Shown here one piece after another: positions 12,068 through 58,953 of a DNA stretch of 64,000 nt (positions are counted from its first letter, which is position 1; each line of letters begins with the position of its first letter). The DNA lies in contig JBAXAJ010000001.1 in assembly GCA_037142555.1 (NCBI GenBank), forward strand, positions 104,423 through 168,422. The letters are read 5' to 3'. Below the pieces are notes generated by a model. The model worked only from the letters and a program-made list of their open reading frames with translations. It did no database searches and was not told the origin of the DNA. The DNA is from Candidatus Shapirobacteria bacterium. GTDB lineage: Bacteria > Patescibacteriota > Microgenomatia > UBA12405. A program made the translations under genes and the position numbers.

Positions 12068-12068
12068 A

Positions 12069-39457: not shown

Positions 39458-39489
39458 ATTTGATTATATAGCAAAAAACTTGATATTAG

Positions 39490-39563
39490 TCGGGGATACA
39501 GGATTCGAACCTGCAACCTCACACACCCCATGCGTGCACGCTAGCCAATTGCGCCAATCCCCG
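39490..39563 (-). tRNA. tRNA-Pro (anticodon GGG)
   Basis: The reverse complement folds as a cloverleaf: acceptor CGGGGAT/ATCCCCG, D-arm GCGC…GCGT, anticodon stem CACGC/GTGTG with loop AT-GGG-GT, and T-arm GCAGG-TTCGAAT-CCTGT. No encoded CCA. Confidence 0.85.
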
Positions 39564-39633: not shown

Positions 39634-40350
39634 ATGGAAGGTGAAATAATTGAAAATTTTGAACCTAAAAACACTAGAGACACTATTATAGATAGACAGA
39701 AAGAATTTGTCTCTTCAGTTAAAGAAGAGTCTAAAAATTTACCAGCAATTATTGAACATACAAATGATTCAGAAGCAGTCAAAGTCAAACAGCTAGAAGA
39801 TGGAAGATATCTCTACGAAGTATCAGATAAAGACAATGATAAACTAAAATCATTTTTTATTAGTGATGACTTATTCAATCAGTTTCCTGAAGATTCAGAT
39901 CTTGATTGTAGTAGTTTTTTACGTAAAAAACTAACAGGCCCAATTATTGAATATAATGCTAAAAAAGATGATGGCACTGAAGAAATCCTCTACACCATCA
40001 AAAGTCGCGAAACTGATAAATATAAAGTTTTACAAGAAATGACTGGCCAAACTTATGATTATCTACCGACAGTCTTATTTTCTGCTAATTTAACAAGAGG
40101 GATTGTCCATGTCCCATGGTTAATCGATTTAAAACCAGAAGGAATTATAAAAATAGGTTTAAACCAGATTAATAAAGATGGCACTCTCAGAAAAGCAAAA
40201 GAAGAATGGTCATATATTTCTTATACCCCAACTGAAGAGGAGTTTGAAGAAATGGACAGAGAAAGAGAGGATAGATTTAATAAAGCCAAAGTTTATTTAA
40301 GCAACGTCGTACCAAACCTCCCTTTACTCGAAAACCCTAAAAATAATTAA
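39634..40350 (+). CDS. Hypothetical acidic protein (238 aa)
   Basis: ORF only. Confidence 0.45.
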   Translation: MEGEIIENFEPKNTRDTIIDRQKEFVSSVKEESKNLPAIIEHTNDSEAVKVKQLEDGRYLYEVSDKDNDKLKSFFISDDLFNQFPEDSDLDCSSFLRKKLTGPIIEYNAKKDDGTEEILYTIKSRETDKYKVLQEMTGQTYDYLPTVLFSANLTRGIVHVPWLIDLKPEGIIKIGLNQINKDGTLRKAKEEWSYISYTPTEEEFEEMDREREDRFNKAKVYLSNVVPNLPLLENPKNN

Positions 40351-40437
40351 TCTTCGGCTTTTATTCGGTTTTGCCCCTTGACTTGATATATTTCTTTTTG
40401 ATATCACTATAGATGTAAAGTTAATTTTAAAAAAAAT

Positions 40438-41493
40438 ATGAAAAAAACAACTATAAAAACAAAATCAGTCGCTAGTAACAACATCCAAGACAAAAAAATG
40501 GAGTCTGTCCGTTTAGCCATGGAACAAATCACAAAAAATTATGGAACCGGATCCATCATGTTAATGGGTGAAAAGAAAGCCGACATGTCAATTGAAGTCA
40601 TTCCTACTGGTTGTCTTCCTCTCGACATTGCTCTTGGTGTTGGTGGTCTTCCTCGAGGCCGAGTCACTGAAATTTTTGGACCAGAAGCTTCTGGTAAAAC
40701 CACTGTTTGTCTTCATCTAATTGCTGAAGCTCAAAAACTTGGTGGAACCGCTGCTTTCATCGATGTTGAACATGCTCTCGATCCTACCAGAGCAGCCACT
40801 GTTGGTGTAGATCTAGACAGTCTTTTAATTTCTCAACCAGACAATGGTGAACAAGCCCTAGAAATCGTTGAAACTCTAGTTCGTTCCAATGCTGTTGATG
40901 TAATCGTCATCGATTCCGTTGCTGCTCTAGTTCCAAAAGCCGAAATTGAAGGTGAAATGGGTGATTCAATGATGGGTGTTCAAGCTCGTCTAATGTCTCA
41001 AGCTCTAAGAAAACTCACTGGTGCTATTTCTAAATCAAAATGTGTTGTTATTTTTACCAATCAACTTCGTCAAAAAATTGGTGTTATGTTCGGCAATCCA
41101 GAAACAACTCCAGGCGGTGTTGCTCTAAAATTCTATTCTTCAGTCAGAATCGACTTAAGAAAAATTGCCAACATCAAAACTCCAGCTGGTGAAACCATTG
41201 GTTCCCAACATCGAGCCAGAATAGTCAAAAATAAAATTGCCCCACCTTTCAAAGAAGCTGAATTTGACATGATGAGTACCGAGGGTATATCTATCAATGG
41301 TGGAATAGTCGACCTAGGTGTCCAACATGGCCTAATCACAAAAGCTGGTGCTTTCTTCAAAATTGGAGATCAAAATCTTCAAGGTCGTGAAGCAGCCAAG
41401 AAATATCTTAAAGAAAACCCAAAAATTGCTGAAAAACTCAAAGCTGAAGTTTGGGAAAAGGTCAAAGATGCAAATCCTGTGGACAAAAAATAG
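40438..41493 (+). CDS. recA: Recombinase RecA
   Basis: Walker [10 protein letters not shown] and FIDVEHALD motifs. The true start may be the internal M at 40497 ([11 protein letters not shown]…). Confidence 0.9.
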
Positions 41494-42106
41494 TCGTTTT
41501 CCAAACAGAATCTATATCAAGTTTTCTGATGGTCTTTTATTGCCATTATTTATCGATGATTTAGTTAAATTATCCCTAAATTCTGGCAAAGAAGTTAGTG
41601 AAGACGAATTAAATATCATTATAAATTTATCTCTATCTTATCTTTTAAGAGATTATGCTCTTCGTCAAATTGCTCTTTCTCCTAGAAGTGAAAAGTCTCT
41701 AAGTCAAAAACTTAAAAAATACATCGATGGCCGAATCTATAAATATTCTATTCCTCAAAATAATCTAGATTTAAAAGATTTAACTGATCAGTGTGTTACT
41801 AAACTTAAAAGCCAAAAATTGATCAGAGATTCAGAATATATCGATTTTTTCATCAAAAAATATCATAACAAATCAAAAAAAGAGATAATTTATCTTCTCC
41901 AAAAAGAAGGTCTTAAAATAGACATTTCTCAATTAAAAGCTTCTGACATTGATAAAATAAAAAAATTAATTCAAAAAAAGAAGATAAATTCAGAAAAATT
42001 AGCTGATTTTAAGTATAAAAATAAAATTATGTCTTATCTATACCAAAAAGGATTTTCTATAGATGACATCAAAAATGTGATTGACGGATTGATGATTTCC
42101 AGTTAA
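41468..42106 (+). CDS. recX: Regulatory protein RecX (probable)
   Basis: It lies immediately after recA with a 26-nt overlap. [20 protein letters not shown] matches the RecX repeat motif (YALRLLxRRxRSExEL). The start is uncertain. Confidence 0.55.
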
Positions 42107-42263
42107 AATATAGGCAACTTAAATTAAAATATTAATTATTAAATTTAACTTTTTATATACGCACTCAAATGTTATTCAAATTTAAAAGATTATTAGCGCC
42201 TGTTTCTCATTTCTAATATCTTAGTGTAGCCGTGCTGTGTCGTAAAAAGTGAAGGAGTTCTTT

Positions 42264-43835
42264 ATGTTAGATAATTTTTTGTCCAGAGTTAAAGGTTTAT
42301 TTTCTGAAAAAACCTCAACTAAAACAGTCACTAAGAAAAATAGTGCAGTTAAAAAAGAAGTAAAAAAAGAAGAAGTCGTTAATCAAGATAAAAATAGGGT
42401 TGTCTTCTCACCAACCAAAACAGTTGAAGCAACTCCTGTTGCCCCAGCTCCAGTTGTTAACACAGCTCAAATTGATGCTGCCTTGCAAAATGCTAAAAGG
42501 ATAGAAGCTGATGCCAAAGCTAAAGAAACTGAAATTTTTCAACGTCTCTCTTCTCTGAATGATAAAGAGAAATACATGATTGAAAAAGAAAGATCTCTAG
42601 ACACTCAATCTGCCGAAATCAAAGCAAAAATGAATAGTGTTGAAGATCTCTATAAAAAACAATTAGAAAAATTAGAAAACATTTCTGGTCTTGATATTGA
42701 AAAAGCTAAACAATTAATAATTAGCAGCACTGAAAAGAAAATGGTCAGTTGGATTGCTAAAAAAGTTGAAGATGCTAAGGAAGAAATCAGAAACAAAGGT
42801 GATGAATTAGCCAAAGAAATTTTGATTGATAATATTCGTCATGGAGTCACTGATTATGTTGCTGAATACACTGTTTCCACTATTTCTCTTCCAGATGACA
42901 CCATCAAAGGAAAAATCATTGGTCGAGAAGGTCGAAACATTCGTGCTTTTGAAAAAGCTACTGGTGTTGAACTAGAGCTAGACGAATCTAACGATATCCG
43001 CATTTCTTCTTTTGATTCAACTAGAAGAGAAATCGCTAAACTATCTCTCGAAAAGTTGATCAAAGATGGTCGAATTCAACCTCTTAAGATTGAACAAATT
43101 GTGGCTCAAACTAAAAACGAAATGGAAAAGATTTTAATAAATGAAGGTCGAAAAATCTGCCAAGAAGTTGGAGTCTTTAATTTACCACTCGATTTAATGA
43201 GAGAAATTGGTAAATTTAAATTCCGCTACTCTTATGGTCAAAATTTAGCTAAACACACCATCGAAGCTACTAAAATTGCCACCGCCATTGCCTATGAGTT
43301 AAAAGCTGATGTCAACACTGTTCGGCTTGGAGCTTTATTACACGATATTGGTAAGGTAGTCACCGATCAAGAGGGGACTCACATTGATCTTGGTGTTGAT
43401 TTATTAAGACAATTCAAAGTCACTGAAGCCGTCATCAATTGTGTCGCTGAACACCATGAAGATAAAGAATTTTCTTCACTAGAATCAACCATTGTTTACA
43501 TTGGGGATGCCGCTTCTGGTGCTCGTCCTGGTGCTCGATATGAAGTCCATGAAGAATATCTTAAAAGAATGAAAAACATCGAAGAAGTTGCTAAAAACTT
43601 TCCTGGTGTTCTAAGTGTCGCCGCCTATCAAGCTGGACGTGAAGTTGTAGTTATTGTCGAACCTACAATAGTTTCTGACAATGAAGCTGAAGTTCTAAGC
43701 CAAAATATCGCTCAACATCTAGAAGAAGAAGCTAAATGGGCCGGTCAAATAAAAGTTACTGTTATTAGAGAGTTAAGAACTAGCAGTATTATTGTTGGTA
43801 ATAAAATCAATAATAATGCGGTAAAAAATGACTAA
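42264..43835 (+). CDS. rny: Ribonuclease Y
   Basis: N-terminal TM/coiled coil, a KH domain (IIGREGRNIRAFEKATGVEL) and an HD domain (LLHDIGK). GAAGGAG Shine-Dalgarno before ATG 42264. Confidence 0.85.
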   Translation: MLDNFLSRVKGLFSEKTSTKTVTKKNSAVKKEVKKEEVVNQDKNRVVFSPTKTVEATPVAPAPVVNTAQIDAALQNAKRIEADAKAKETEIFQRLSSLNDKEKYMIEKERSLDTQSAEIKAKMNSVEDLYKKQLEKLENISGLDIEKAKQLIISSTEKKMVSWIAKKVEDAKEEIRNKGDELAKEILIDNIRHGVTDYVAEYTVSTISLPDDTIKGKIIGREGRNIRAFEKATGVELELDESNDIRISSFDSTRREIAKLSLEKLIKDGRIQPLKIEQIVAQTKNEMEKILINEGRKICQEVGVFNLPLDLMREIGKFKFRYSYGQNLAKHTIEATKIATAIAYELKADVNTVRLGALLHDIGKVVTDQEGTHIDLGVDLLRQFKVTEAVINCVAEHHEDKEFSSLESTIVYIGDAASGARPGARYEVHEEYLKRMKNIEEVAKNFPGVLSVAAYQAGREVVVIVEPTIVSDNEAEVLSQNIAQHLEEEAKWAGQIKVTVIRELRTSSIIVGNKINNNAVKND

Positions 43836-43902
43836 CAATACTTGCATTTTGCCGATATTCCGCTATTATTAAAATAATTATTAATTAATTAACAAAAAAA
43901 TA

Positions 43903-44175
43903 ATGACTAAAAAAGACTTAATCGAAATCGTTTCGCAAAAAGCAAAACTCAGCAAAAAAGCTGCTAAGCAATCTGTTGAAACTTTCTTAAATGAAATTAT
44001 GAAAGCACTCTCTGGTGGAGAAGTTGTTAAGCTTTCAGGTTTTGGAACTTTCAAAACCAAAATGTTCAAAGCTAAAACTATCAAAGCTATTGGAACTAAA
44101 GAATCTAAAAAAATCGTCGCTCGAAGAATGCCTCGATACATTCCAGGAACCAAGATCAAGAAAATGGTAAAGTAA
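43903..44175 (+). CDS. hup: DNA-binding protein HU
   Basis: MTKKDLIE…GFGTFKTK…RMPRYIPGT matches the HU/IHF fold; 90 aa. Confidence 0.9.
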   Translation: MTKKDLIEIVSQKAKLSKKAAKQSVETFLNEIMKALSGGEVVKLSGFGTFKTKMFKAKTIKAIGTKESKKIVARRMPRYIPGTKIKKMVK

Positions 44176-44194
44176 TTTTTTTGAAATTAATTAA

Positions 44195-44221
44195 GCCCTC
44201 CGAATCTCGGGGGGCTTTTTG
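44195..44221 (+). terminator. Rho-independent terminator after hup
   Basis: gccctccga-atc-tcggggggc followed by ttttt. Confidence 0.7.
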
Positions 44222-44281
44222 TTACCTTGCGATTAACCTAAAAAACCTTTATAAATATATACAGTATGTATTTTATTTATT

Positions 44282-47200
44282 TTGTCTAAAAATTTGATCA
44301 AGTTTAGGTTCAAATTACCAATAAAGAAAAAAGTTTCAGACTATTTTTTTGCGCCTCGTTTTTACTTCTCCAGATTTCAGTTTAATTTAATCGCTGTTTT
44401 ATTCATCAGCATCGGTCTTGCCACTGGGACTTATTTAACCATGTCCAAAGTGATTTTACCTTCAATCTTCGCTGTGTCTCAAACTTCCAACACCCTAAAT
44501 TTTGATGTCGGCAGTTCTGGTAATTATAATTATGACACCTCCTCAGTCACTATTGGTGCCAGTGGTGTCCAACCAATAGCAACCAACAAATTTTCTAATT
44601 CTAGTTTCGCCACTAATAGTGTTGGTTGGACTTCAGATATCATAGTTCCAAATGGTTATGTCAAAGTTCCTGGAAATTCAACTTTTAGTACTACTGATTT
44701 TGCTGTTATGAAATATGAAGCTAAATGTGCTTCCACAAGTGACCCTGCTACTGGTTTAACAAGTCCTACTTTTATACCATTTTATACTTATAAAAATAAT
44801 GTAGATGATTGTATTTCAGCTAATAATAAGCAAGTAGTTTCAGTAGCTAATGGATATCCAATTGCCTTAATTACTCAGCCTGATGCAATCACCAAATGTG
44901 CCAGTGTTTCTGTTTCCGGTGCCACTGCTCATTTAATTAATAATAATGAATGGATGACTATTGCCAGAAATGCTGAAGCTCAAAACACCAATTGGTCTCT
45001 AGGCGCTGTTGGTTCTGGTTATTTATATGCCGGTAATAATAACATTGATACAAGTTACTCTCATTATATTTACAATGCATCGACTAATGATACAGGTAAT
45101 TATCGTTGTGCTTACACTAACACTGGTTCTTCAGACAATCCATCTCCTTGTCCTTATAACACAGCTCAAAATACTTCTGGAACTAGGGGAAGTCAAGTCA
45201 GAGTTTTAAAATTATCAAATAATGAATCAATTTGGGATATGGCGGGAAATGTTGGAGAGTGGATTAATAATACTCAAACAGGCACAACTATAGGCCCTAG
45301 TAGTATTTTAGAGTGGAATTCTTCTAGCCTTGCTTCTGGAGCTAGAGATCTTTATGGGCCATCAAGCTCTTCATATCTTAAAGCCCAGGGAATGGGGTCT
45401 TTCACTGGTGGTGCTTTGGGTAATGTTTTTATGCGTGGAGGTATTTATCTTGACTCTTTAGATGCTGGTATTTATAGTTTAAGTTTAAGTTCTAGTTCTT
45501 CTTATTTATATCCTGGAATTGGTTTTCGTTGTGCCATTTCTGGTAATGTTTTATCACAAGTATCAAATGTTGGTTTAGGAGCAAGTGGAGCTGCAAAAAT
45601 TATTGCTAATCCTGGATCAGATTCTAAGATTTATCAGACAATGGCCAATCTTACTACCAATTCTACTTACGACTTTTCCGCCTATGTTTATAATAATACT
45701 GCTGGTGGTATTGGTGGCACAGTCAATGCTTCTATTGCTCAACTAGAATATAATGGAGTTGGAATTACTACTACCTACACTAATTCAGGTTCAGGTTGGT
45801 GGAAACTTTCCGCCACCGTCACTGCGGCCAGTGGCTCACAAGAATTTGGTCTTCTAACCAAAGCCGGCAAAACAGTCTTTTCTGATAATTTTAGTTTAAT
45901 TCCTATTATTTCTCCTATCTACACCACCACTTCTTTTTATAATCGTCAAATTATGGAATGGAGCTCTTTTAGTGCAGTTGGCACTACTTTTGCCACTTCT
46001 CCAATTACTTATCAACTTTGTTCAACCGATGCTTCTATTTGTGAAAGTAGTAATACTTGGCAATATTGGAATGTCTCCAGTTCCACTTGGTCCAACGCCA
46101 CCAATCTCACTATGACTAATACTGCCGGAGATATAAATACTCATATCAGCACTTTCCCTGTCACCAACAAAAAAATTGCTGTCAAAATCATTATGACTTA
46201 TGATGGCACCAATGTTCCAACTCTTAGTTCCATTAATTATGGTTTTAAAATTGATAATCTTGCTCCAGTGACTAATGCTTCAAGTGTAATAATGAATTCT
46301 TCAATCGGCTTAACTTGGGCTAACACAAATCCATCTTTTACTTGGACAGCTGCCACAGATGATGATCCAAGTGCTTCAGGAATAAAGGGCTACTGTCTAT
46401 CTTTATCCACTACCACCGGTGGTGTCGATCCAGTTTCTTCAAAAGGCAAACTAGGCACTTCTCCAGTCCCTATTTCTGATAATATTTGTCAATTTATTGT
46501 TCCTTCAAATTCTCTAAATTTAAATACCGCTGGCTATTTAGCCTCGGCATTACTTGATTCTGAAGAAACTTATTATTTAAACATTAAAGCTATTGATAAT
46601 GTAAACAATGTTTTCCCTACTTCAACTTATTTTGAGTTCAAATATGACTCTACTAAACCTAGAAATGTCTCTTATATTTCTCCAGCTTCTGGCAATTTTT
46701 CCAATGTCGTTGATATGAGTTTTTCTTGGCCAATCAGTGTTGGTAGTAGTGTATCTTCATCAGATAGTGGCAGTGGAATTTTGGGTTGGCAATACCAAAT
46801 AAATACTAATGATGCTGATAAATGGCAAGGAAGCACTACGGCTCCAGAATTAGGTGGCCTAAAATATATTCCTAGTGGCACTTCTAGTTATAGCCTAGTT
46901 GAAGGTAAAGATGCTATTGTTTCCGGAAACAATGTTATTTACTTCAGAACTGTCGATAAAGCCGGCAATTTTTCTACCGATGCTACTATTCGCACTGGTA
47001 ATATTGCTTTTGGTGGTGCGGCTCCTGCTTTCAACCAAAATAATAGTGTCACTATCAATCCTAATACTTCTACAACTAATTCTTTTGCTCTGTCTTGGCC
47101 AAGTGCCACTGCTACTAATGGTCAAAGTGTCACTAATTATTACTATATGTTAAACACTCCACCACCATCAACTTTAGCCACTCTACAGGGTAATATTTCA

Positions 47201-48904
47201 ACCTATATCAACAATGGCACTGCAACCACAGTTGCTGTCAAAAGTCTTCCAAATGTCAACAAAGGTACTAATACTGTCTATGTTGTTGCAGTCGATAGTG
47301 CCAACAATTATTCACCATCAAATTACACTAGTGGTACTTTTGTTCTAGATTCCAATACTCCCGACAATGTCAGCAATTTAGTTTCTTCTGATTCTTCAAT
47401 CAAATCTCAATCTCAATGGAATATTACTCTTACTTGGACCGCTCCAATCTATCAAGGTGCTGGCAATTTAATTTATCAAGTCTATCGATCAACCGATGGT
47501 GTTAATTTTGCTCAAGTTGGTTCTTCTACTGGCCTTTCCTATGTCGATAATACTCCAGCTTCAAGCAAATATTATTACAAAGTCTATACCAAAGATGGTG
47601 CCAATGCGGTCTCTTCTGGTACTAATGCTGTTTCTATTACTCCAACTGGTAAATGGACTACTTCTCCAATTATTGATTCCCAACCAACTACTTCTTCAGT
47701 AACTACCAAAAAAGCTACTGTCAATTGGTCTACTGACCGAAAAGCCGATTCTAAAATTGCTTTTGGAACTAAATCTGGCAGTTATAATACCGAAGAACCA
47801 AGTAATCCAACTCAAGTTTCCAGTCATTCCATTAATCTTACCGGTCTTTCTCCAGGAACCACTTATTATTATCGGGCCAAGTGGACAGATGAAGACGGAA
47901 ACACAGGAACCAGTGATGAAAAATCTTTCACCACTGCCGCTGCTCCAACAGTTAAAGATGTTTTAGTCAAAAATGTTAATCTAAGTTCAGCTTTAGTCCA
48001 GTTCACTTCAACTGGAGCTAGTAAAGTCAAGGTTTATTATGGCACCAGCACCGCTTTTGGCGGAGCCCTAGAAATTCATACTTCAACTTCTGAAGCTACT
48101 TATACAGTCAACTTAATTGGTTTACTCGATGGCACAAAATATTATTACAAAATAAATGCTTTTGACAGTGAATCTAGTGAATATGAAGGCACAGTTCTAG
48201 ATTTCACCACTATTCCAAGACCAAAAATTTCTAGCGTTCAACTCCAAGAAGTAGCTGGAACTTCTCAATCTACAATTTTAGTCACTTGGAACACTAACAC
48301 CGAAATTTCTTCAATTGTCACTTATTATCCAGAAGGTAAGCCAGAACAATCTCGAGATGAAGTCAGTATCCAATCAATCAAAGGCCAACACAAAATGATT
48401 CTTCGAGGCTTCACTCCTGAAACTAACTACATTTTAGTTGTTAAAGGTCGTGACAAAATTGGCAATGAAGCAGTTTCTGATAATCATCATTTCACCACTG
48501 CCACCGACACCAGACCACCACAAATTTCTAGTCTACTAGTTGAAGGTCAAAATGTTCCAACAGTTTCTGGTGCTGCTCAAGAATCAACAGCTCAATTAAT
48601 CGTTTCTTGGAACACTGATGAACCAGCCACTTCTCAAGTTGAATTTAGTGAGGGAACTGGTGCCACTTATTCTCAAAAAACTCAAGAAGATGCAAAACTT
48701 ACCTACAACCATCTAGTCATTATTTCTGGTCTAACAGCTTCAAAAGTCTATCACTTGAAAGCAATTTCCAGAGATAAAGCCAATAACACTGGTAAATCAA
48801 TTGACACTGTCACTATCACTCCAAAAGCCACTGATAATGCTCTAAACTTAGTTGTTTCCAATCTAGGCCAAGTATTTGGTTTCTTAGGAGGATTTAATAA
48901 ATAA
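44282..48904 (+). CDS. Giant membrane-anchored surface protein (1540 aa): N-terminal TM, FGE-sulfatase (SUMF1-like) domain, Ig/FN3-like repeat array
   Basis: TM helix LIAVLFISIGLATGTYLTM. IWDMAGNVGEW and …YLYPGIGFRCAISG match the formylglycine-generating-enzyme fold signature. The C-terminal half holds ~100-aa FN3-like repeats (…TVNWSTD…TYYYRAKWTDEDGNTG…). The TTG start is uncertain. Confidence 0.7.
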   Translation: MSKNLIKFRFKLPIKKKVSDYFFAPRFYFSRFQFNLIAVLFISIGLATGTYLTMSKVILPSIFAVSQTSNTLNFDVGSSGNYNYDTSSVTIGASGVQPIATNKFSNSSFATNSVGWTSDIIVPNGYVKVPGNSTFSTTDFAVMKYEAKCASTSDPATGLTSPTFIPFYTYKNNVDDCISANNKQVVSVANGYPIALITQPDAITKCASVSVSGATAHLINNNEWMTIARNAEAQNTNWSLGAVGSGYLYAGNNNIDTSYSHYIYNASTNDTGNYRCAYTNTGSSDNPSPCPYNTAQNTSGTRGSQVRVLKLSNNESIWDMAGNVGEWINNTQTGTTIGPSSILEWNSSSLASGARDLYGPSSSSYLKAQGMGSFTGGALGNVFMRGGIYLDSLDAGIYSLSLSSSSSYLYPGIGFRCAISGNVLSQVSNVGLGASGAAKIIANPGSDSKIYQTMANLTTNSTYDFSAYVYNNTAGGIGGTVNASIAQLEYNGVGITTTYTNSGSGWWKLSATVTAASGSQEFGLLTKAGKTVFSDNFSLIPIISPIYTTTSFYNRQIMEWSSFSAVGTTFATSPITYQLCSTDASICESSNTWQYWNVSSSTWSNATNLTMTNTAGDINTHISTFPVTNKKIAVKIIMTYDGTNVPTLSSINYGFKIDNLAPVTNASSVIMNSSIGLTWANTNPSFTWTAATDDDPSASGIKGYCLSLSTTTGGVDPVSSKGKLGTSPVPISDNICQFIVPSNSLNLNTAGYLASALLDSEETYYLNIKAIDNVNNVFPTSTYFEFKYDSTKPRNVSYISPASGNFSNVVDMSFSWPISVGSSVSSSDSGSGILGWQYQINTNDADKWQGSTTAPELGGLKYIPSGTSSYSLVEGKDAIVSGNNVIYFRTVDKAGNFSTDATIRTGNIAFGGAAPAFNQNNSVTINPNTSTTNSFALSWPSATATNGQSVTNYYYMLNTPPPSTLATLQGNISTYINNGTATTVAVKSLPNVNKGTNTVYVVAVDSANNYSPSNYTSGTFVLDSNTPDNVSNLVSSDSSIKSQSQWNITLTWTAPIYQGAGNLIYQVYRSTDGVNFAQVGSSTGLSYVDNTPASSKYYYKVYTKDGANAVSSGTNAVSITPTGKWTTSPIIDSQPTTSSVTTKKATVNWSTDRKADSKIAFGTKSGSYNTEEPSNPTQVSSHSINLTGLSPGTTYYYRAKWTDEDGNTGTSDEKSFTTAAAPTVKDVLVKNVNLSSALVQFTSTGASKVKVYYGTSTAFGGALEIHTSTSEATYTVNLIGLLDGTKYYYKINAFDSESSEYEGTVLDFTTIPRPKISSVQLQEVAGTSQSTILVTWNTNTEISSIVTYYPEGKPEQSRDEVSIQSIKGQHKMILRGFTPETNYILVVKGRDKIGNEAVSDNHHFTTATDTRPPQISSLLVEGQNVPTVSGAAQESTAQLIVSWNTDEPATSQVEFSEGTGATYSQKTQEDAKLTYNHLVIISGLTASKVYHLKAISRDKANNTGKSIDTVTITPKATDNALNLVVSNLGQVFGFLGGFNK

Positions 48905-48912
48905 TTAAAACT

Positions 48913-49671
48913 ATGATTGAATCAATTGTTCAAATTAAAAATATTTTTAAAACTTTTCGGGTTGGAACTCAAGATGTTCCAGTTCTAAAAGACATCAGTT
49001 TTAATGTAAAGAAAGGTGATTTCCTAGTTATCTACGGGCCATCAGGTTGTGGCAAATCGACTCTTCTCCACACTATTCTAGGTCTAGAAGCTCCAACCAA
49101 AGGTACTATTATTTTTCTAGGAAAAGATCTCTACAAAGATTCATATGGAGAAGACCGAATTGAAGACGATAGAACTGACTTCAGAAAAAATCATATTGGT
49201 ATGGTCTATCAACAGGCTAACTGGATTAAATCTCTAACCGTTCTCGAAAATATAATTTTCCCACTATCACTTTTAGGCATGGATAAATTAAAAAGAGAAG
49301 AAATGGCTAAAAATGCTCTTAAGACTATGGAAATGTTAGCTTGGGCAAATTATTCACCTTCAGAACTTTCCTCTGGTCAACAACAAAAAGTGGCTCTGGC
49401 TCGAGCTCTAGTCACCAATCCAGAAGTGATTATTGCTGATGAACCAACCGGAAATCTAGATTTCGAATCAGGCCAAGAATTGATGTCTCTTTTGACTGAT
49501 TTAAGTAATAATGAAGGTAAAACTATAATTATGGTTACTCACGATTTGGAATATTTGAAATATGCTAAAAGCACAGTCAGAATGCTCAATGGCCAAGTTG
49601 TCGAGTTAAACACTAGTCAAGAAACAATTAAAAAAATAAAATGTAAGAAAGTTGATCAAAATGAAAAATAA
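48913..49671 (+). CDS. ABC transporter ATP-binding protein (MacB/LolD/FtsE-like)
   Basis: Walker A GPSGCGKST, signature LSSGQQQKV, Walker B IIADEPTGNLD. Confidence 0.9.
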   Translation: MIESIVQIKNIFKTFRVGTQDVPVLKDISFNVKKGDFLVIYGPSGCGKSTLLHTILGLEAPTKGTIIFLGKDLYKDSYGEDRIEDDRTDFRKNHIGMVYQQANWIKSLTVLENIIFPLSLLGMDKLKREEMAKNALKTMEMLAWANYSPSELSSGQQQKVALARALVTNPEVIIADEPTGNLDFESGQELMSLLTDLSNNEGKTIIMVTHDLEYLKYAKSTVRMLNGQVVELNTSQETIKKIKCKKVDQNEK

Positions 49672-51601
49672 ACAAAAAATAAACTATTTTAAGAAAATAA
49701 AAGAAGGAGCTATCTTTTTAGCTGTTTTAGTAGTCTATTTTATATTCCAAATAATAAAATTTGCCTGTCCTAAAAAAAATGTTTCTGGAGTAATAAGTTG
49801 TCATTTAAAAGTAAATTCATTTTTAAATGGAAAACAAGATGACACAATTTCTAGAACTGATTTAATTGAAATTTCACTTCGTAATTTAAAGTCAAAAAAA
49901 ACCAGAACTATGGTCACAATTGGAGGAATGACTATTGGAATTGCTGCTATCGTCTTTTTAGTTTCACTTGGTTATGGTATTCAACAACTAGTCATAACTC
50001 GGGTTGCCAGACTTGAAGAAATGCGCCAAACCGACGTCACGCCTCAAACTGGTGGAAAACTTAAAATTAATGATAAAACACTCTCTGACTTCAAGGGGAT
50101 TAGTAATGTTGAACTAAGTCTACCTCTTATCTCTGTTGTTGGTCGAGTTAACTACAAAAACTCAGTTTCAGACATGGCTGTTTATGGAGTAACCACTGAT
50201 TATCTTAAACAATCAGCTGTCAAACCAATCTATGGAAAAATTTTTGAGAGTAACCAATTAGCTGCTCAAGTATCAAAAGGAGAAGTTGCTGGAGTTTCCA
50301 CTGAAAACACAGCCACAATTGGCACTGAAATTGGAAATCTAGAATTTAATATTAAACCAGGTGATTGGGTCAGAGTCAGAGAAAGTCCAGATGCAAAATC
50401 AAAATTATTAGGTTACACCCAAAGAAGCGAGGGTAAAAATCAAGGTATGGAAGTTTGGGGAGCATCTTATGTCTCAGATTCTAAAGTTGGAGAAGCCATT
50501 CAAGATCAAAATGGTAAAAATCTTGGGAAATGGATTAAAACTCCAGCTCTAATTTGGCAAAAGAAAGATAATGAATATATCCTTGACCAAGATACCGATG
50601 GGAAGCAAGTTCAGAAAACTGGCTATTTAGCCGAATCAAATGTCACTGTTGAAGCCAAAATTAAAGAATCAAATGTTCTAGGTGTTTCGACTGATGCCAA
50701 AACTTCATTAGCCACAAATTCAGCCTCAGCCTCACTTTCTCTAGTCGAAATTGCTTCAGAATCTGGGGTAGCTGTTTCTGAAAATACAAAGATAGTCGCT
50801 CTTGGTGAATCGGCTAAAAAAGAAGCAGTGATTAACAGAGCTGCCCTTAGTGTTCTAGGTATTAAAGAAAATGAAGCTGTGGGTAAAAAATTCACTACTT
50901 CCTTTGTCGTTGTTGGTGATTTATTAGAAGATCGAACCCAAAAAATTGAATCTATTCCAACTGAATACACTATTATTGGAGTAATTCCTGATGATAAAAC
51001 TCCAGTCTTTTATATTCCTTTTGTCGATCTAAAAACTTTAGGTGTTTCTAATTATTCTCAAATTAAATTAGTGGTTAATAACCAAACTAATCTAGACAAA
51101 ACTAGACGTCAGATTGAAGCCATGGGTTATGTGACTCGATCAGTTGCCGACACTGTCGCCCAAATTAATAGTCTTTTTGCTACTGCCAGAACTATTCTTG
51201 CCTTATTAGGCTTTTTAGCCCTAACAGTTGCTGCTCTAGGAATGTTTAACACCTTAACTGTTTCTCTTCTAGAAAGAACTCGAGAAGTCGGTCTTATGAA
51301 AGCTATGGGAATGAAATCATCTGAAGTCCAAGAACTATTTTTAACTGAATCAATGATTATTGGTCTATCTGGAGGAGTTCTAGGGATTGTTCTAGGTTCT
51401 CTTCTTGGGAAATTAATCGGTCTAATTCTAACCGCTTTTGCTCTTTTCAAAGGTGTTGGTCCAATCGACATTTCCTATGTCCCACCATTTTTCATCTTAA
51501 TCATAATTGGCCTTTCCTTAATTGTTGGTATAGTCACTGGAATATATCCAGCTCGACGAGCTACCAAAATTTCTGCTCTTAACGCTCTTAGATATGAATA
51601 A
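49652..51601 (+). CDS. ABC transporter permease, MacB/FtsX type with a large extracytoplasmic domain
   Basis: …SLRNLKSKKTRTMVTIGGMTIGIAAIV… first TM, a ~400-aa loop, and a C-terminal FtsX-type module …RTREVGLMKAMGMKSS…. Confidence 0.85.
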   Translation: MIKMKNKQKINYFKKIKEGAIFLAVLVVYFIFQIIKFACPKKNVSGVISCHLKVNSFLNGKQDDTISRTDLIEISLRNLKSKKTRTMVTIGGMTIGIAAIVFLVSLGYGIQQLVITRVARLEEMRQTDVTPQTGGKLKINDKTLSDFKGISNVELSLPLISVVGRVNYKNSVSDMAVYGVTTDYLKQSAVKPIYGKIFESNQLAAQVSKGEVAGVSTENTATIGTEIGNLEFNIKPGDWVRVRESPDAKSKLLGYTQRSEGKNQGMEVWGASYVSDSKVGEAIQDQNGKNLGKWIKTPALIWQKKDNEYILDQDTDGKQVQKTGYLAESNVTVEAKIKESNVLGVSTDAKTSLATNSASASLSLVEIASESGVAVSENTKIVALGESAKKEAVINRAALSVLGIKENEAVGKKFTTSFVVVGDLLEDRTQKIESIPTEYTIIGVIPDDKTPVFYIPFVDLKTLGVSNYSQIKLVVNNQTNLDKTRRQIEAMGYVTRSVADTVAQINSLFATARTILALLGFLALTVAALGMFNTLTVSLLERTREVGLMKAMGMKSSEVQELFLTESMIIGLSGGVLGIVLGSLLGKLIGLILTAFALFKGVGPIDISYVPPFFILIIIGLSLIVGIVTGIYPARRATKISALNALRYE

Positions 51602-52913
51602 TCCTAAAAAGAAATTAAATGTTTTGATAATTGATGGTGGTGGTCGCGGTTCAGTTTTAGTTGAAAAATATTCTCAAAGTAAATTCGTGAAAAACATTTT
51701 TGCTCTTCCAGGCAATGATTTAATGTCTATTAACACTAAAAAACCAGTAAAAACATATCCAGAATTTAAAAGTACTGACGTCCAAGACATAATTCAAATT
51801 TGTCTTCAAGAAAAAATAGACTTAGTTGATGTTGCTCAAGATAATGCCATTGCGGTGGCTCTAGTTGATGAATTAATTAAAAATAACATCCAAGCTATTG
51901 GCCCAACTAAAGATGCTGGACAAATAGAATGGGACAAATCTTGGTCTCGTGATTTCATGGAAAAATATAAAATTCCGTCTCCTTTCTACAAAGTTTTTAA
52001 TAATAAAGAAGAAGGTTTCAAATTTTTAGATAAAAAAAATGATCAAGCTTGGTTTATAAAAGCTTCTGGTTTAGCCGAAGGTAAAGGAGTAATCCCAGCT
52101 AATAATAATCAAGAAGCCAAAGAAGCTATCAAAAAAATGGCTAATTTTGGAAACAGTGGTGAGACCTATCTTTTAGAAGATTGGTTAATTGGTGAAGAGT
52201 TCTCTGCTTTTGCTGTTGTTGATGGTAAAAATTTCCAAATCTTAGGTTATGCTCAAGACCATAAACGAGTTAATGATTCAGACCAGGGGCCAAATACTGG
52301 CGGCATGGGTTGTGTCAGTAATCCTCTAATTGTCAGTAAAGACATTGAATCTCAAGTTGAAGTGATTTTTAAAAAAACTATTAATGGTTTAGCCAAAGAA
52401 AAAAGACCATATAAGGGGATTTTATATCTTGGTGGGATGGTAGTTGGCAAAAAAGTTTTTATCATCGAATTTAATGCTCGTTGGGGTGATCCAGAAGCTC
52501 AAGTCATAATTCCTAGCATCAAAACCGATTTTATAAAAATAAACAGAGCCATTTTGAAAGGGAGAATCAATAAATTAAAATTAATAATTGATAAAAAAGT
52601 CAGAGTGGTTGTGGCTGGAACTTCCAAAGGTTATCCATCTTCCTACGAAGAAGTAAAAGGTAAACAAATTTTTGGCCTAGAAAAAATGTCAAATTCGAAA
52701 GAAGTTAAATTATATGGAGCTGGAATCAAAGTTAAAGATAATAAATTCTTTGCTAATGGTGGTCGTGTTTTCTATTTAATGGCCCAAGGCAAAGATATTA
52801 TTGAAGCTCGAAAAAAAGTGTACAAAAATTTAGCTCTAATAGACATTGATGGTAATAACCTCCATTTCCGCACCGACATCGGCTGGCGCGACCTCGCCAG
52901 ATTAAATAAATAA
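51594..52913 (+). CDS. purD: Phosphoribosylamine--glycine ligase
   Basis: N-terminal KLNVLIIDGGGRGSVL and an ATP-grasp region; 439 aa. Confidence 0.8.
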   Translation: MNNPKKKLNVLIIDGGGRGSVLVEKYSQSKFVKNIFALPGNDLMSINTKKPVKTYPEFKSTDVQDIIQICLQEKIDLVDVAQDNAIAVALVDELIKNNIQAIGPTKDAGQIEWDKSWSRDFMEKYKIPSPFYKVFNNKEEGFKFLDKKNDQAWFIKASGLAEGKGVIPANNNQEAKEAIKKMANFGNSGETYLLEDWLIGEEFSAFAVVDGKNFQILGYAQDHKRVNDSDQGPNTGGMGCVSNPLIVSKDIESQVEVIFKKTINGLAKEKRPYKGILYLGGMVVGKKVFIIEFNARWGDPEAQVIIPSIKTDFIKINRAILKGRINKLKLIIDKKVRVVVAGTSKGYPSSYEEVKGKQIFGLEKMSNSKEVKLYGAGIKVKDNKFFANGGRVFYLMAQGKDIIEARKKVYKNLALIDIDGNNLHFRTDIGWRDLARLNK

Positions 52914-52949
52914 ACTGACATAGCCACGATTACTTGGTAAAATACACCC

Positions 52950-54020
52950 ATGAAACTATCAATCGGGATTGTCGGTCTTCCTAATGTTGGCAAATCAACT
53001 CTTTTTAATGCTCTTCTTGGTAAACAAGTTGCTGATGCCAGCAACTATCCTTTTTGCACTATCGATCCAAATGTTGGTGTAGTTGAAGTTCCTGATGATA
53101 AATTGCCAGTTCTGGCCGAAATTGTTAAAACTACCAAAATAGTTCCAGCCATTGTCGAATTTGTTGACATTGCTGGTCTAGTCAAAGGTGCTTCTCAAGG
53201 TGAAGGTCTAGGCAACAAATTTTTAACCAACATTCGCGACTGTGATGCCATCTGTCACGTAGTCCGCAATTTTTCTGATAACAACATCATTAAAGAAGGT
53301 TCTGTTGACCCACAAGGCGATTTTGAGGTCATTTGCACCGAATTAATCATCAAAGACCTCGATAGTGTTGATAAATATATAAGCACTAACAAAAATAATC
53401 CAAAAGAAAGCAAAACTAAGAAATTTATTTTTGCTCAAAAACTTAAATCAGAACTAGAACAAGGTCATTTAGCCGTCAACATTTCTCTAGATGATGAGGA
53501 AAAAGATTTAATCAAAGAATTTTTCTTATTAACTGCCAAGCCTTATTTCATAGTCGCTAATGTCGATGAAGATACCTATCAAAACATTGAAAATTGGAAA
53601 TTAAACATTACCAACTGGGAATCTGTCGTTCCGGTTTGTGCCAAAATTGAATTTGAACTTTCTGAACTAGATAAAGAAGAAAAATTAGCCTATTTAAAGG
53701 AATTAGGAGTAGAGAAGTCAGGTCTAGAAAGAGTCATTCAAAAAGCTTACGAAACTCTTGGTCTCCAATCCTACTATACCGCTGGAGTTAAAGAAGCCAG
53801 AGCCTGGACAATCTACAAAGGTGACACCGCTCCAAAAGCTGCCTCAGCAATCCACACTGATTTTGAAAAAGGTTTCATCATGGCCGAGGTTGTTTCTTAT
53901 CAAGATTTCATCGAACATAAAGGTTTATTAGGGGCCAAAGAAGCCGGCAAACTTCGACACGAAGGTCGTGATTACATCATGCGCCCTGACGATGTTGTCG
54001 AATTCAGAATCAATGCTTAA
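52950..54020 (+). CDS. ychF: Ribosome-binding ATPase YchF
   Basis: GIVGLPNVGKSTLFNAL… and DIAGLVKGAS motifs, plus a C-terminal TGS domain. Confidence 0.9.
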   Translation: MKLSIGIVGLPNVGKSTLFNALLGKQVADASNYPFCTIDPNVGVVEVPDDKLPVLAEIVKTTKIVPAIVEFVDIAGLVKGASQGEGLGNKFLTNIRDCDAICHVVRNFSDNNIIKEGSVDPQGDFEVICTELIIKDLDSVDKYISTNKNNPKESKTKKFIFAQKLKSELEQGHLAVNISLDDEEKDLIKEFFLLTAKPYFIVANVDEDTYQNIENWKLNITNWESVVPVCAKIEFELSELDKEEKLAYLKELGVEKSGLERVIQKAYETLGLQSYYTAGVKEARAWTIYKGDTAPKAASAIHTDFEKGFIMAEVVSYQDFIEHKGLLGAKEAGKLRHEGRDYIMRPDDVVEFRINA

Positions 54021-54927
54021 CAAAATTTTAATTATTTCTGGTCCAACTGCCACCGGCAAAACCGATTTAGCCGTAAAATTGGCAAAAAAATATAAAGGCG
54101 AACTAGTTTCCACCGATTCTTGTCAGATTTATAAAGGTCTTGATATTGGCACCGGCAAAGATCAACCAGATGAAACTCCAATTCATCTAGTCGACATCAT
54201 CACTCCAGACCAAAAATATTCTGTAGCTCAATTCCAAAAAGATGGACTAGAAGCCATCAAAAAGCTTCAATCCCAAAACAAATTACCAGTTTTAGTCGGT
54301 TGCAGTGGCTTTTATCTTGATTCTTTAATCAATCCAAACTATGACACTTTTTCAATTAAACCAAACAAATTTTTAAGATTTATTTTAAAAAGATTATCAG
54401 TCAAAAATCTCCAAACTATCTATAAACTTTTAGATCCAACTAATTTTTCTAAATTAAATAACTCTGACATCAACAACCACTACCGCCTCGGTCGCAAAAT
54501 CGAAATAAAATTAAGTTTTAAGTCTCCCTTGTCAAAGGGAGATTTAGAGGGATTGAACCAAAATATTCTCCACATTTCTCTCACTGCCCCTCTCGATTTT
54601 CTCTATGACCGCATTGATAAACGAGTTCAAAAAAGAATAGACATTGGTTTTTTTGATGAAATTAAAAATTTATTAAAAAGATATAAATGGTCAGATCCAG
54701 GCATGCAAATTGGCGCCTATCAATGTCTAAAACCTTATTTTAATAAAAAAGAAAATTTAGAAGATTGTCTAAAACTTTGGCAATATGCCGAACACAGTGA
54801 TGCCAGACGCCAAAGCACTTATTTCAAATCCAGATATCAAAATAAAGCCTATTTTTTCGACATTACTTCAAAAAATTTCAATACAAAAATTTCTAGTTTA
54901 GTGTCAAAATGGTACAATAAAGCATGA
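54013..54927 (+). CDS. miaA: tRNA dimethylallyltransferase
   Basis: ILIISGPTATGKTDLAVKLA… P-loop and ..STDSCQIYKGLDIGTGK. ATG 54013 overlaps the ychF stop. Confidence 0.8.
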   Translation: MLNKILIISGPTATGKTDLAVKLAKKYKGELVSTDSCQIYKGLDIGTGKDQPDETPIHLVDIITPDQKYSVAQFQKDGLEAIKKLQSQNKLPVLVGCSGFYLDSLINPNYDTFSIKPNKFLRFILKRLSVKNLQTIYKLLDPTNFSKLNNSDINNHYRLGRKIEIKLSFKSPLSKGDLEGLNQNILHISLTAPLDFLYDRIDKRVQKRIDIGFFDEIKNLLKRYKWSDPGMQIGAYQCLKPYFNKKENLEDCLKLWQYAEHSDARRQSTYFKSRYQNKAYFFDITSKNFNTKISSLVSKWYNKA

Positions 54928-55895
54928 AAACAAATAAAATTGAAATTTCTCAAAAAACCATCATTTTCACTATTTTATTTCTAATTGCTCTTGGCCTACT
55001 TTGGTTAATCAAAGATGTAATTGTCTTGTTTTTTGTTTGTTTTATTTTAATGCAAGCCATAAATCCAGCTGTTGTCCGTTTAGAAAAATTTAAAGTTCCT
55101 AGAATTTTAGGTATAGTCTTAATCTATTTATTAATTTTAATCGCAATTGTTCTTTCTTTTGCTGGAATAATTCCAATTCTAATTGAACAAACAACTGGTC
55201 TAGCTAAAACCCTACCAGATTTAATCAAAAATGCCTCTTTCTTTGGGATTTCCACTGCTGATTTATCTTCACAATTTAAAATTCTAGAAAGTCTTCCAGG
55301 TGGAATTGCCAACACCGCTTTCGCCATTTTATCTAACTTATTTTCTGCCATAGTTATTTTAATGGTCACTTTCTATCTACTCCTAGAAAGAAAAAATATG
55401 GGTGATTATAGTATTAAATATTTTGGTCAAAACACCGGTTCTAAAATCAAAAAAATTATTGATCAACTAGAAATTAGACTAGGTAGCTGGGTCAGTGCTG
55501 AAGTGTTGTTAATGATTATTATCGGGATTCTTTCATTCATTGGGTATTCACTTCTTGGTTTAAAATATGCCGTAGCCTTAGCATTAATTGCTGGGATACT
55601 AGAAATAGTCCCTAATATTGGTCCAATTATCTCAGTGATTTTAGCTTCAATAATTGGTTTCACAGTTTCACCAACCATTGGTCTTTTAACAATTCTAGTT
55701 GGAACTATTGTCCAACAATTAGAGAACAATTTGATTGTCCCAAAAATAATGAAAGAAACTTGTAACATCAGTCCTGTAATAACAATCTTATTACTTATGG
55801 TTGGGGCTAAACTAGGGGGAGTTGTTGGTGCTATTATAGCCGTCCCAATATACATGACAGCTGAAGTCATTTTTAAGACATTAAAAAAACCCTAA
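54924..55895 (+). CDS. AI-2E family (UPF0118/PerM-like) transporter
   Basis: About 8 TM helices; conserved C-terminal …GAIIAVPI… region. Confidence 0.6.
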   Translation: MKTNKIEISQKTIIFTILFLIALGLLWLIKDVIVLFFVCFILMQAINPAVVRLEKFKVPRILGIVLIYLLILIAIVLSFAGIIPILIEQTTGLAKTLPDLIKNASFFGISTADLSSQFKILESLPGGIANTAFAILSNLFSAIVILMVTFYLLLERKNMGDYSIKYFGQNTGSKIKKIIDQLEIRLGSWVSAEVLLMIIIGILSFIGYSLLGLKYAVALALIAGILEIVPNIGPIISVILASIIGFTVSPTIGLLTILVGTIVQQLENNLIVPKIMKETCNISPVITILLLMVGAKLGGVVGAIIAVPIYMTAEVIFKTLKKP

Positions 55896-55896
55896 A

Positions 55897-56168
55897 GAAA
55901 CTGATAAGCTGGATTTTGTTTAAGGATCATCTATCTATTCTCTCTACCTGAGGCTCTCAAAAGCTAGATATTAACGCCTCATCTTGAGATTTCCACCAGA
56001 AGGATGCTCGTTTCACTTCAGCCGCCGTAGCCTTCTTGCGAAGGTGGCTAGCTTGCTCGTCTCTGTAGCATTGCCCAAAGCTCACGCCCTGGCCCCTAAG
56101 GACTTCTGTGCTTTTTGTGGTCCAGACTTTCCTCCCCGAAAAATCGGGGTAGACCCTTCAACTTCTTT
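55897..56168 (-). ncRNA. rnpB: RNase P RNA (bacterial type A, reduced to ~270 nt)
   Basis: The minus-strand transcript contains GGAGGAAAGUCUGGAC (P4 5' strand), …ACAGAGACGAGCAAGC…, …GAAGUGAAACGAGC…, …CAAGAUGAGGCG…, and ACAAAAUCCAGCUUAUCAG (P4 3' strand, matching E. coli ACAGAACCCGGCUUAUCGG). The 5' AAAGAAGUUGA pairs with the 3' UCAGUUUCUUU to form P1. GC content is locally elevated. Confidence 0.8.
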
Positions 56169-56187
56169 AAGGTTGATGTATTTTACC

Positions 56188-56216
56188 AAAAAAAACCCCC
56201 CGAAGCTTCGGGAGGT
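56188..56216 (-). terminator. Rho-independent terminator (minus strand) for the small gene 56245-56418
   Basis: cctcccgaag/cttcggggg palindrome followed by T8 on the minus strand. Confidence 0.6.
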
Positions 56217-56244
56217 TAAAAACAAATTTTGTTTTTAATATCAC

Positions 56245-56418
56245 CTATAGCAAAGCTGCATCAGCTGCTGAAAGGATTTTGAACATTTTTGTTCCAGTTT
56301 CTGGATCAATAGTCTCAGCTGCTGGTCGTCCGTTCTTAAGAGTAACTTTCTTGACCTTAGTTACATCGATTTCAACAGTCTTTCTTGATTTTACGTTGTA
56401 AAATTTAATGGTTGTCAT
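56245..56418 (-). CDS. Small basic protein (57 aa), possibly DNA-binding with an SH3-like fold
   Basis: GGGGGTG Shine-Dalgarno 8 nt before the ATG. MTTIKFYNVKSRKTVEIDVTKVKKVTLKNGRPAAETIDPETGTKMFKILSAADAALL. A terminator lies downstream. Confidence 0.6.
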   Translation of the reverse strand: MTTIKFYNVKSRKTVEIDVTKVKKVTLKNGRPAAETIDPETGTKMFKILSAADAALL

Positions 56419-56614
56419 GAAAAATTCACCCCCTTAAAAAAAATTAATAATTTTTAACATTAATATAGAGTTTGAAAATAATATATAACCACAATCACTA
56501 AAACGGCAACGATACTTAAAATTAAGCTTTTAATTAAATCTTTTTTAATAAAATTTACTTCTTTCATTTTTATATGGCCAGTATAGCATAGACTTTTGTT
56601 ACAATAATTTAACG

Positions 56615-56965: not shown

Positions 56966-56972
56966 AAAACAA

Positions 56973-58948: not shown

Positions 58949-58953
58949 AACTA

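Follow-up and report, generated by a model that had tools for sequence, protein, structure and literature searches.

C-type lectin (CLec) domains of the formylglycine-generating enzyme (FGE) type are the commonest class of targets of diversity-generating retroelements (DGRs), and surveys of these elements say little about the function of their targets in the candidate phyla radiation (CPR) (PMC5758913, PMC8144416, PMC11661182). DGR variable proteins with this fold include TaqVP of Thermus aquaticus (PDB 5vf4), TvpA of Treponema denticola (PDB 2y3c) and the 'category b' targets of Wu et al. 2018. A Legionella DGR is located inside an integrative and conjugative element (ICE) (PMC5758913). In Patescibacteria, type IV secretion systems (T4SSs) are related to monoderm conjugation machinery, and a 2025 survey of them did not detect PrgB-like adhesins and makes no mention of DGRs or of ATP-binding cassette (ABC) genes (PMC12102498); large surface proteins with fibronectin type III (FN3) or integrin domains are discussed as adhesion candidates in these organisms (PMC13059738). 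The locus considered here lies in a stretch of 64,000 nucleotides (the window) from a Candidatus Shapirobacteria bacterium (assembly GCA_037142555.1, contig JBAXAJ010000001.1, positions 104,423 to 168,422), and consists of a gene encoding a giant protein followed by genes for the ATPase and permease of an ABC transporter. The giant gene probably encodes a modular Patescibacteria surface adhesin with a fixed head that has been decoupled from a DGR, and with a type VII ABC transporter as the obligate partner of its stalk and tail. No description of this cassette was found in the DGR, T4SS and Patescibacteria literature, and Paul et al. 2017, on CPR DGRs, may contain an earlier account.

The head domain and its DGR-linked relatives

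The head of the giant protein has the FGE-sulfatase/C-type-lectin-like fold. A structure model of residues 95-545, based on an 84-sequence alignment, has a pLDDT of 85.6 and a pTM of 0.81, and both in Foldseek and in a sequence-profile search against PDB chains the nearest relatives of the head are non-enzymatic DGR variable proteins. A preliminary description of this DNA had deduced an FGE fold from the motifs IWDMAGNVGEW (residue 317) and GIGFRCAISG (residue 412), and had favored a binding module over an enzyme. Both motifs are present and both proposals are upheld: a binding role fits the head because its nearest relatives are ligand-binding C-type-lectin DGR variable proteins. The Pfam family PF03781 has no match to the whole giant protein at E <= 0.01; on the head it scores 17.1 bits against a gathering cut-off of 23.3, with only the GNVxEW segment matched, and many homologs of the head reach the threshold. 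Cysteines occur at residues 149, 177, 206, 276, 290 and 417. None lies between RGG (residues 385-387) and GFRC (residues 414-417), and the catalytic CxxxxC pair of true FGEs, judged by its position in human FGE, is therefore absent. When the head was compared to an approximate human FGE fragment using hhalign, only the GNxWEW motif aligned. As the preliminary description had noted, there is no sulfatase nearby, at least among the open reading frames (ORFs) scanned with Pfam, which covered approximately 32 to 62.5 kb of the window. The head is not a formylglycine-generating enzyme.

Every homolog of the first 445 residues belongs to Patescibacteria. GTDB species representatives contain at least 513 relatives of the head, of which 80 loci were taken for analysis; a metagenome scan added 79, and the best metagenome relatives are ~57-66% identical. 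In most of these relatives, a cassette of an accessory protein (Avd), a template region (TR) and a reverse transcriptase (RT) is present directly upstream, and the best explanation of the data is that it rewrites ~11 Asn codons within the ~36 residues that end the CLec domain, the variable region (VR). In one such locus (L001), genes encoding a serine recombinase, a DUF87 protein resembling a type IV coupling protein (T4CP), Replic_Relax, DUF2958, bAvd, an RVT_1 RT and an NYN-domain protein precede the giant gene, which is called in two pieces, and are followed beyond it by a fused ABC_tran-MacB_PCD-FtsX gene, TrbC, a 584-residue protein, and TraC-like and VirB4-like proteins. The end of the CLec domain is repeated between Avd and RT as a 121-nt copy, the TR, which differs from the VR by 12 mismatches, all 12 of them at TR adenines. 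A scan of the first 84 loci and the window for TR/VR pairs recovered pairs of 116-125 nt in more than 20 loci, and TR adenines account for 80-100% of their mismatches (for example 10/10, 16/16, 16/16 and 17/18). TR translations read FLRGGNWNNTSNAGAFTLNLNNTPSN.NNNIGFRCASD, and the VRs deviate essentially only at the Asn codons. In RT-linked loci, conservation of the DNA just 3' of the VR (AGTGATCCCGTAGCAATCTCTCAATCTTT...) extends to synonymous sites. Upstream DNA of at least 3.5 kb is available for 31 CLec-headed giants, and in 28 of these an RT lies within 4 kb upstream; the three exceptions are the window and the loci L021 and L031. The giant protein in the window is an ortholog of these DGR targets, 48-63% identical to giants whose VRs pair with TRs via adenine-only mismatches.

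The segment of the window gene that is equivalent to the VR keeps the exact length and the RGG...GFRCA frame of its relatives, and the parts of a DGR are missing around it. No template copy of 45419-45544 occurs in the 64 kb, as judged by an ungapped two-strand scan, a repeat search and self-blastn with an adenine-bias filter; the best non-self match in the window is 60/126, which is the chance level. Searches of the window by phmmer, with RT and Avd sequences of relatives as queries, found neither gene, and neither is present in the Pfam-scanned ORFs. The features that act in cis have decayed as well. The GC content of the VR equivalent is 0.33, compared to 0.44-0.70 in 29 RT-linked VRs, and a 33-nt IMH-like motif following the VR is retained at 11/33 positions, compared to 23-32/33 in the same number of RT-linked loci. 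VR positions that are invariant in active systems are altered (RGGxW to RGGIY, AGAF to AGIY, and TP to SS), and agreement with the family TR consensus is found at 15 of 25 non-Asn positions. The window gene is best read as a frozen, DGR-decoupled copy. Its past as a DGR target is supported by phylogeny and by the retained scaffold, not by codon statistics.

The other two exceptions differ from each other. L021, which is RT-less and flanked by housekeeping genes (LexA, PPDK, Lgt), has undergone a similar decay, with a post-VR motif of 10/33 and a GC content of 0.36. In a neighbor-joining distance tree built on the 1100 post-VR residues, long branches lead to the window and to L021, and both are nested within DGR-linked members. 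They are not sisters, and the tree therefore favors independent losses of the DGR in the two lineages. In L031, one of the family members from Saccharibacteria metagenome-assembled genomes, no RT is present within 9.6 kb upstream, yet the VR-like segment has a GC content of 0.58 and the post-VR motif is 29/33. It may be that a DGR elsewhere in the L031 genome serves several targets. An Lcl_C-domain ORF is located 6 kb upstream of the RT-less giant gene (L031:2504-3487).

Of 38 RT-positive loci, 22 have genes of the T4SS type (relaxase, T4CP-like, TrbC/VirB2, and TraC-like or VirB4-like) within ~10 kb, compared to none of the nine RT-negative loci with adequate flanks; the DGR-bearing form thus rides inside T4SS/conjugation clusters. 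The RT-less forms, the window included, sit among housekeeping genes, and phmmer searches with the relatives' proteins found no relaxase, T4CP, VirB2 or VirB4 in the window. In this respect the relatives resemble the Legionella pneumophila LdtA system: a surface-exposed CLec protein is likewise diversified by a DGR whose carrier is a conjugative element, here with genes encoding relaxase, T4CP-like, TrbC/VirB2, VirB4-like and serine recombinase proteins. However, LdtA is a small lipoprotein of the CLec2/DUF1566 class from a diderm, whereas the giant target is a TM-anchored protein of 1500 residues with an ABC partner (TM, transmembrane), and the window copy has neither DGR nor T4SS genes. Similarly, the window giant shares with the TaqVP/TvpA class a CLec-fold domain with the variable scaffold at its C-terminal end. 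Unlike those proteins, the window copy lacks TR, RT and Avd and has decayed cis features; its CLec domain is not C-terminal but is followed by 1100 residues of carbohydrate-binding module (CBM), immunoglobulin (Ig) and FN3 domains; and it has an obligatory MacB-type ABC partner, of a kind that was not found described for DGR targets.

Several features of individual relatives are worth recording. In L001:11147-11268, and also in L002, L003, L004 and L109, the VR contains an in-frame TGA where the TR has TAA, plus a 1-nt insertion, and the L001 giant is for this reason called as two proteins of 385 and 1175 residues. There is no VR variation in this group, as the five public records are identical. 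Several other homolog gene calls terminate inside the RGG...GFRC segment. UGA recoding was considered as a source of the shortened homologs and rejected: the end points differ, and the remaining long ORFs of these loci read through unbroken with code 11. The giants of L105 and L106 each have two CLec domains, every one with its own VR-like segment, which suggests two diversified heads per protein. Finally, many metagenome-assembled genome records with the third-party titles 'uncultured Gammaproteobacteria' or 'Pseudomonadales' (L006-L008, L014-L017, L021, L022, L025 and others) carry the Patescibacteria-type cassette, and these titles are probably taxonomic mislabels.

The ABC pair and its linkage to the stalk and tail

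The ATPase matches PF00005 (E 1e-35) and is similar to LolD, FtsE and the nucleotide-binding domain of MacB; LolD and FtsE are its best NCBIfam matches, both below the equivalog cut-offs (LolD 201 compared to 308). The permease contains MacB_PCD (PF12704) and FtsX (PF02687) domains and belongs to the type VII (MacB/LolCDE-fold) group. It is a four-TM FtsX-type permease with an extracytoplasmic domain of ~390 residues between TM1 and TM2, and its hydrophobic segments are at residues 85-116, 510-536, 562-606 and 603-633. A model of the permease (pLDDT 79.6) has as its top Foldseek matches MacB (5gko/5lil, E 1e-18), LolCDE (9rld, E 3e-17), Spr0694-5 (5xu1) and YtrEF (9o9x). The MacB-type pair recognized in the preliminary description is thus borne out by both domain content and structure. 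The NCBIfam equivalogs LolD, FtsE, MacB and lolCE all score far below cut-off (lolCE 71 compared to 362). At least 854 permease homologs exist, and the sequence is conserved to an unusual degree, with identities of 57 to 74% among the best 120 matches listed.

Like MacB, LolCDE, FtsEX, YtrEF and the pneumococcal Spr0693-0695 system, the window pair combines PF00005, the FtsX TM helices and the MacB_PCD domain, and, as for FtsEX and LolCDE, dedication to one protein partner is plausible. It differs from these type VII mechanotransducers in its sub-cut-off scores, in a β-rich insert in the extracytoplasmic domain (residues ~220-336) that is accompanied by a disordered linker, in an extra N-terminal helix, in the lack of an adjacent adaptor of the kind that tripartite MacAB-TolC has (no MacA/HlyD-type domain is present in the adjacent ORFs), and in having a giant FN3 adhesin as its partner. 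The extra hydrophobic helix (residues ~16-38) is located in the first 60 residues of the permease (49652-49830), ahead of the canonical TM1; it may be a remnant linker or an elbow helix, given that the ATPase is fused at this point in relatives.

Linkage between the giant gene and the ABC genes was counted on a base of 92 distinct stalk-containing loci. Downstream DNA of 1 kb or more is available for 78 of them, and in all 78 the ABC genes are directly 3' of the giant gene; both ABC parts, which may be split or fused in relatives, are present in 64 of the 66 loci with longer flanks. The median gap between the giant gene and the ABC genes is 2.5 nt. The preliminary description had named linkage in relatives beforehand as a test on which its proposal could fail, and at 78/78 the linkage decisively survives that test.

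The linkage does not depend on the CLec head. In L123 (JGI Ga0247840_10000178, 2263-12848), two tandem giants of 1916 and 1612 residues with FG-GAP/integrin-like heads are followed by a single ABC pair, the permease of which is the closest relative of the window permease among the matches listed (74% identity). In L133, a DUF2341 head takes the place of the CLec domain. Both sets of giants retain the N-terminal anchor, stalk and tail of the family. Since the ABC linkage persists with FG-GAP or DUF2341 heads, the transporter goes with the stalk and tail. In agreement with this, shorter CLec proteins that lack the stalk have no adjacent ABC genes, with rare exceptions at a distance. As a genomic partner, the ABC pair is obligate for the stalk and tail of the giant protein, not for its head.

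Layout of the locus and of the giant protein

The features of the locus are collected in the table below. Coordinates of the giant, ATPase and permease ORFs, and the overlap with purD, are as given in the preliminary description, as is the N-terminal TM helix, which is the single hydrophobic segment of the protein. A second TTG, four codons downstream, is a possible true start of the giant ORF, and the gene call in another assembly is of 1536 residues.

Table. Features of the giant gene, its protein product and the adjacent ABC genes (positions in the window; aa, residues of the giant protein)
Feature	Position	Strand	Remarks
Terminator-like hairpin 3' of HU gene	44193..44217	+	11-pair stem, 7 GC pairs, then T-run
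Giant gene	44282..48904	+	1540-aa ORF, TTG start; N-terminal anchor, head, stalk, tail; Patescibacteria-wide homologs
N-terminal TM helix, aa ~34-55	44381..44446	+	Sole segment with Kyte-Doolittle mean >=1.6
FGE-type CLec head, aa ~116-425	44627..45556	+	
DGR variable-region equivalent FMRGGIYLDSLDAGIYSLSLSSSSSYLYPGIGFRCA, apparently frozen	45428..45535	+	Length and frame as in relatives' VRs
CBM-like β-sandwich, aa ~435-540	45584..45901	+	
Middle stalk: β-domain and three putative OmpL47-type/Ig-like repeats, aa ~545-1030	45914..47371	+	
FN3 array, aa ~1034-1520	47381..48841	+	Pfam PF16656, PF00041
Conserved C-terminal tail TPKATDNALNLVVSNLGQVFGFLGGFNK, 27 residues	48821..48901	+	
ABC ATPase gene	48913..49671	+	Starts 8 nt past giant gene stop
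ABC permease gene	49652..51601	+	ORF

The TM helix is preceded by the family motif PRFYFSRFQFNL, which is kept in relatives. Pfam detects four Pur_ac_phosph_N/fn3-type domains in the C-terminal part of the ectodomain (residues ~1134-1520), and sequence pattern and weak matches suggest a fifth FN3-like unit at residues ~1034-1130. In the middle stalk, nothing scores above noise in Pfam, and NCBIfam barrel_OmpL47 is weakly matched at residues 882-903; a recurring pattern in the translation (...SFSW...SGI.GY.Y...VDKAGN.S, residues ~655-1030) points to three Ig-like repeats as the probable domain count. Of the five or more FN3/Ig-like repeats proposed previously, then, four FN3 domains are directly detected, and the fifth and the three Ig-like repeats are predicted. 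The Ser/Thr-rich region proposed alongside them does not hold up, as Ser and Thr make up ~25% of the whole ectodomain and form no discrete block. The tail motif, expressed as a regular expression, matches 78 of 87 relatives. A role for the tail as a TM or sorting anchor was rejected, as its hydropathy maximum is 1.3, below the TM threshold used, and it contains polar residues; it may instead be a docking signal. The window giant resembles the large FN3/integrin surface proteins of Patescibacteria in its size, membrane targeting and FN3 domains, and paralogous heads include FG-GAP. It differs in that its family is defined by a conserved anchor, stalk and tail, swappable heads and an invariant ABC partner, an organization that was not found described for those proteins.

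The genes upstream of the giant gene encode RNase Y and HU. The terminator-like hairpin after the HU gene is strong, and the giant gene therefore opens a new transcription unit; the gap between hairpin and giant ORF is 64 nt, which leaves no room for Avd, TR or RT. Downstream, purD (51594-52913) overlaps the permease stop by 8 nt. From this overlap, a single transcription unit including purD was proposed earlier as probable; purD is not linked in any relative's locus, and the overlap is local to this genome. The only genes common to the window and the loci of relatives are those encoding the giant protein, the ATPase and the permease. The window covers core chromosome from a low-GC genome: Pfam identifies recA, recX, RNase Y, HU, purD, ychF, miaA and others as neighbors, and the housekeeping content extends to rpoBC-sized ORFs, SecDF and an apparent ribosomal-protein operon, of which S9 was the only member checked. 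The region 39661-59388 is 100% identical to a second public assembly, three assemblies carry identical sequence at the giant-gene locus, and for the permease there is a match of 100% identity in a protein cluster named Candidatus Shapirobacteria FtsX-like permease.

Two further observations concern the surrounding DNA. At 32831-36632, there are four tandem paralogous ORFs of 321, 283, 285 and 294 residues that have a common N-terminus (MKK..IAKFLVIALVLGGGLIYGTQMVQKNQENRS) and Cys-rich repeats of ~45 residues (G.CG.TKN.C..GK..D..DT...YKW.C). None of the four has a Pfam match, and they resemble a small family of secreted or anchored proteins that is undergoing duplication. On the complementary strand, an ORF at 37604-38560 joins an OB-fold (tRNA_anti-codon) to PolB-type 3'-5' exonuclease/RNase_H_2 domains, and adjoins a tRNA-Pro gene (39489-39563).

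A proposed adhesin system and its alternatives

The family to which the giant gene belongs, the absence of a DGR from the window, the swapping of heads and the tracking of the stalk and tail by the transporter were all missed in the preliminary description. Of the 'dedicated surface-display or export system' envisaged there, the coupling to the ABC genes is real, and export is conjectural. In the reading preferred here, the protein has a short basic cytoplasmic tail with a TM anchor, followed by a ligand-binding head that can be swapped, a CBM-like module, a stalk of Ig and FN3 domains, and the conserved C-terminal tail. The head would bind a ligand on a host or partner cell. In the window copy, the variable region would have turned into an ordinary fixed binding surface rich in Tyr, Ser and Leu, so that the specificity of the head is fixed. 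The ABC machine would act on the adhesin by mechanotransmission rather than by pumping a small molecule, with ATP-driven movement of the permease extracytoplasmic domain working on the adhesin itself. It could hold or operate the adhesin via the conserved C-terminal tail, in the way that FtsEX takes hold of its partner hydrolases, or it could pull out the N-terminal anchor, much as LolCDE does with lipoproteins.

Several points weigh against this reading. The physical coupling of the ABC pair to the giant protein is hypothetical, and both the ligand of the adhesin and its partner cell are putative. JGI labels homologous permeases 'ABC-type antimicrobial peptide transport system permease'. With regard to the loss of the DGR, the searches for its parts span 64 kb of a ~183-kb contig rather than a whole genome, the neighbor-joining tree is a plain distance tree without support values, and NNY codons at 10 of 11 former Asn positions do not constitute a significant excess (P = 0.12). 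The missing VR variation among the three assemblies is weak evidence, as these possibly derive from one sample.

Of the alternatives, it is unlikely, although less so than the others, that the giant gene remains an active DGR target, with a retroelement outside the window serving it in trans. Remote targets occur in other DGR systems (Wu 2018, PMC5758913), L031 keeps a VR-like GC content and an almost complete post-VR motif with no nearby RT, and the window VR equivalent retains its exact length and frame. What argues against service in trans is the state of the window copy, in which the post-VR motif is lost, the GC content has fallen, and positions that are fixed by TR copying in active systems have been altered. 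The identity of the three assemblies over the VR segment and the immediate adjacency of the DGR in nearly all relatives point in the same direction. A little less probable again is that the ABC pair has a function independent of the giant protein's and is no more than co-transcribed with it, for example as an efflux or resistance pump for antimicrobial peptides or lipids. MacB-type pumps often export small molecules, and the label given to some homologs would agree with such a role. A mere bystander, however, would be hard to reconcile with linkage that is universal across Patescibacteria classes, genomic contexts and head types at a gap of a few nucleotides, with the movement of the three genes together as the sole common unit, or with the lack of adjacent ABC genes beside the stalk-less CLec relatives, rare distant exceptions apart.

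Two other explanations concern the giant protein itself. It could be a pilus-borne adhesin, with an N-terminus that is a type IV prepilin signal in degenerate form and is cleaved for assembly onto a pilus, as distant, shorter CLec homologs often carry genuine prepilin N-termini (PF07963 together with PF03781), and FQFNLIAVLF in the window loosely resembles the prepilin pattern G|FTLIELLVV. This is very improbable: the N-terminus reads ...SRFQFNLIAV, PF07963 has no Pfam match in the giant protein, Gly-1 and Glu+5 are missing both in the window and across the giant family, and no pilus genes are nearby among the ORFs scanned, the constant partner being the ABC machine. A true FGE acting on a sulfatase is effectively refuted by the missing cysteine pair, the sub-threshold PF03781 score and the lack of a sulfatase domain in the scanned ORFs, as well as by the extracellular position of the domain on a TM anchor and by its non-enzymatic nearest relatives.

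The DGR-type variable protein family is known; its ABC partner was previously unremarked. A broader and more speculative proposal, which is appreciably less probable than the fixed-head adhesin itself, is that the giant protein and its MacB-type partner form an undescribed, Patescibacteria-wide machine for adhesin deployment, in which the adhesin is held, extended or released via its tail or anchor. The mobile form would then be a partner-recognition adhesin for the T4SS, and the window copy a chromosomally fixed derivative for host attachment, with its specificity frozen. If this is true, the mobile form would supply an adhesin for the T4SS where the 2025 survey detected no PrgB-like one (PMC12102498).

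The family is extensive and strongly conserved. It combines a modular adhesin, DGR hypermutation of its head in most lineages (within a T4SS/relaxase cluster) and an invariant MacB-type ABC partner, and it suggests a new job for type VII ABC machines, that of operating a giant adhesin. The window copy offers a natural comparison after loss of the diversifier, both for what a 'chosen' binding surface looks like and for the pace at which DGR cis signals decay. Recognition of host or partner cells by the ultra-small, episymbiotic Patescibacteria is largely obscure, and this family offers concrete candidates for the recognition step.

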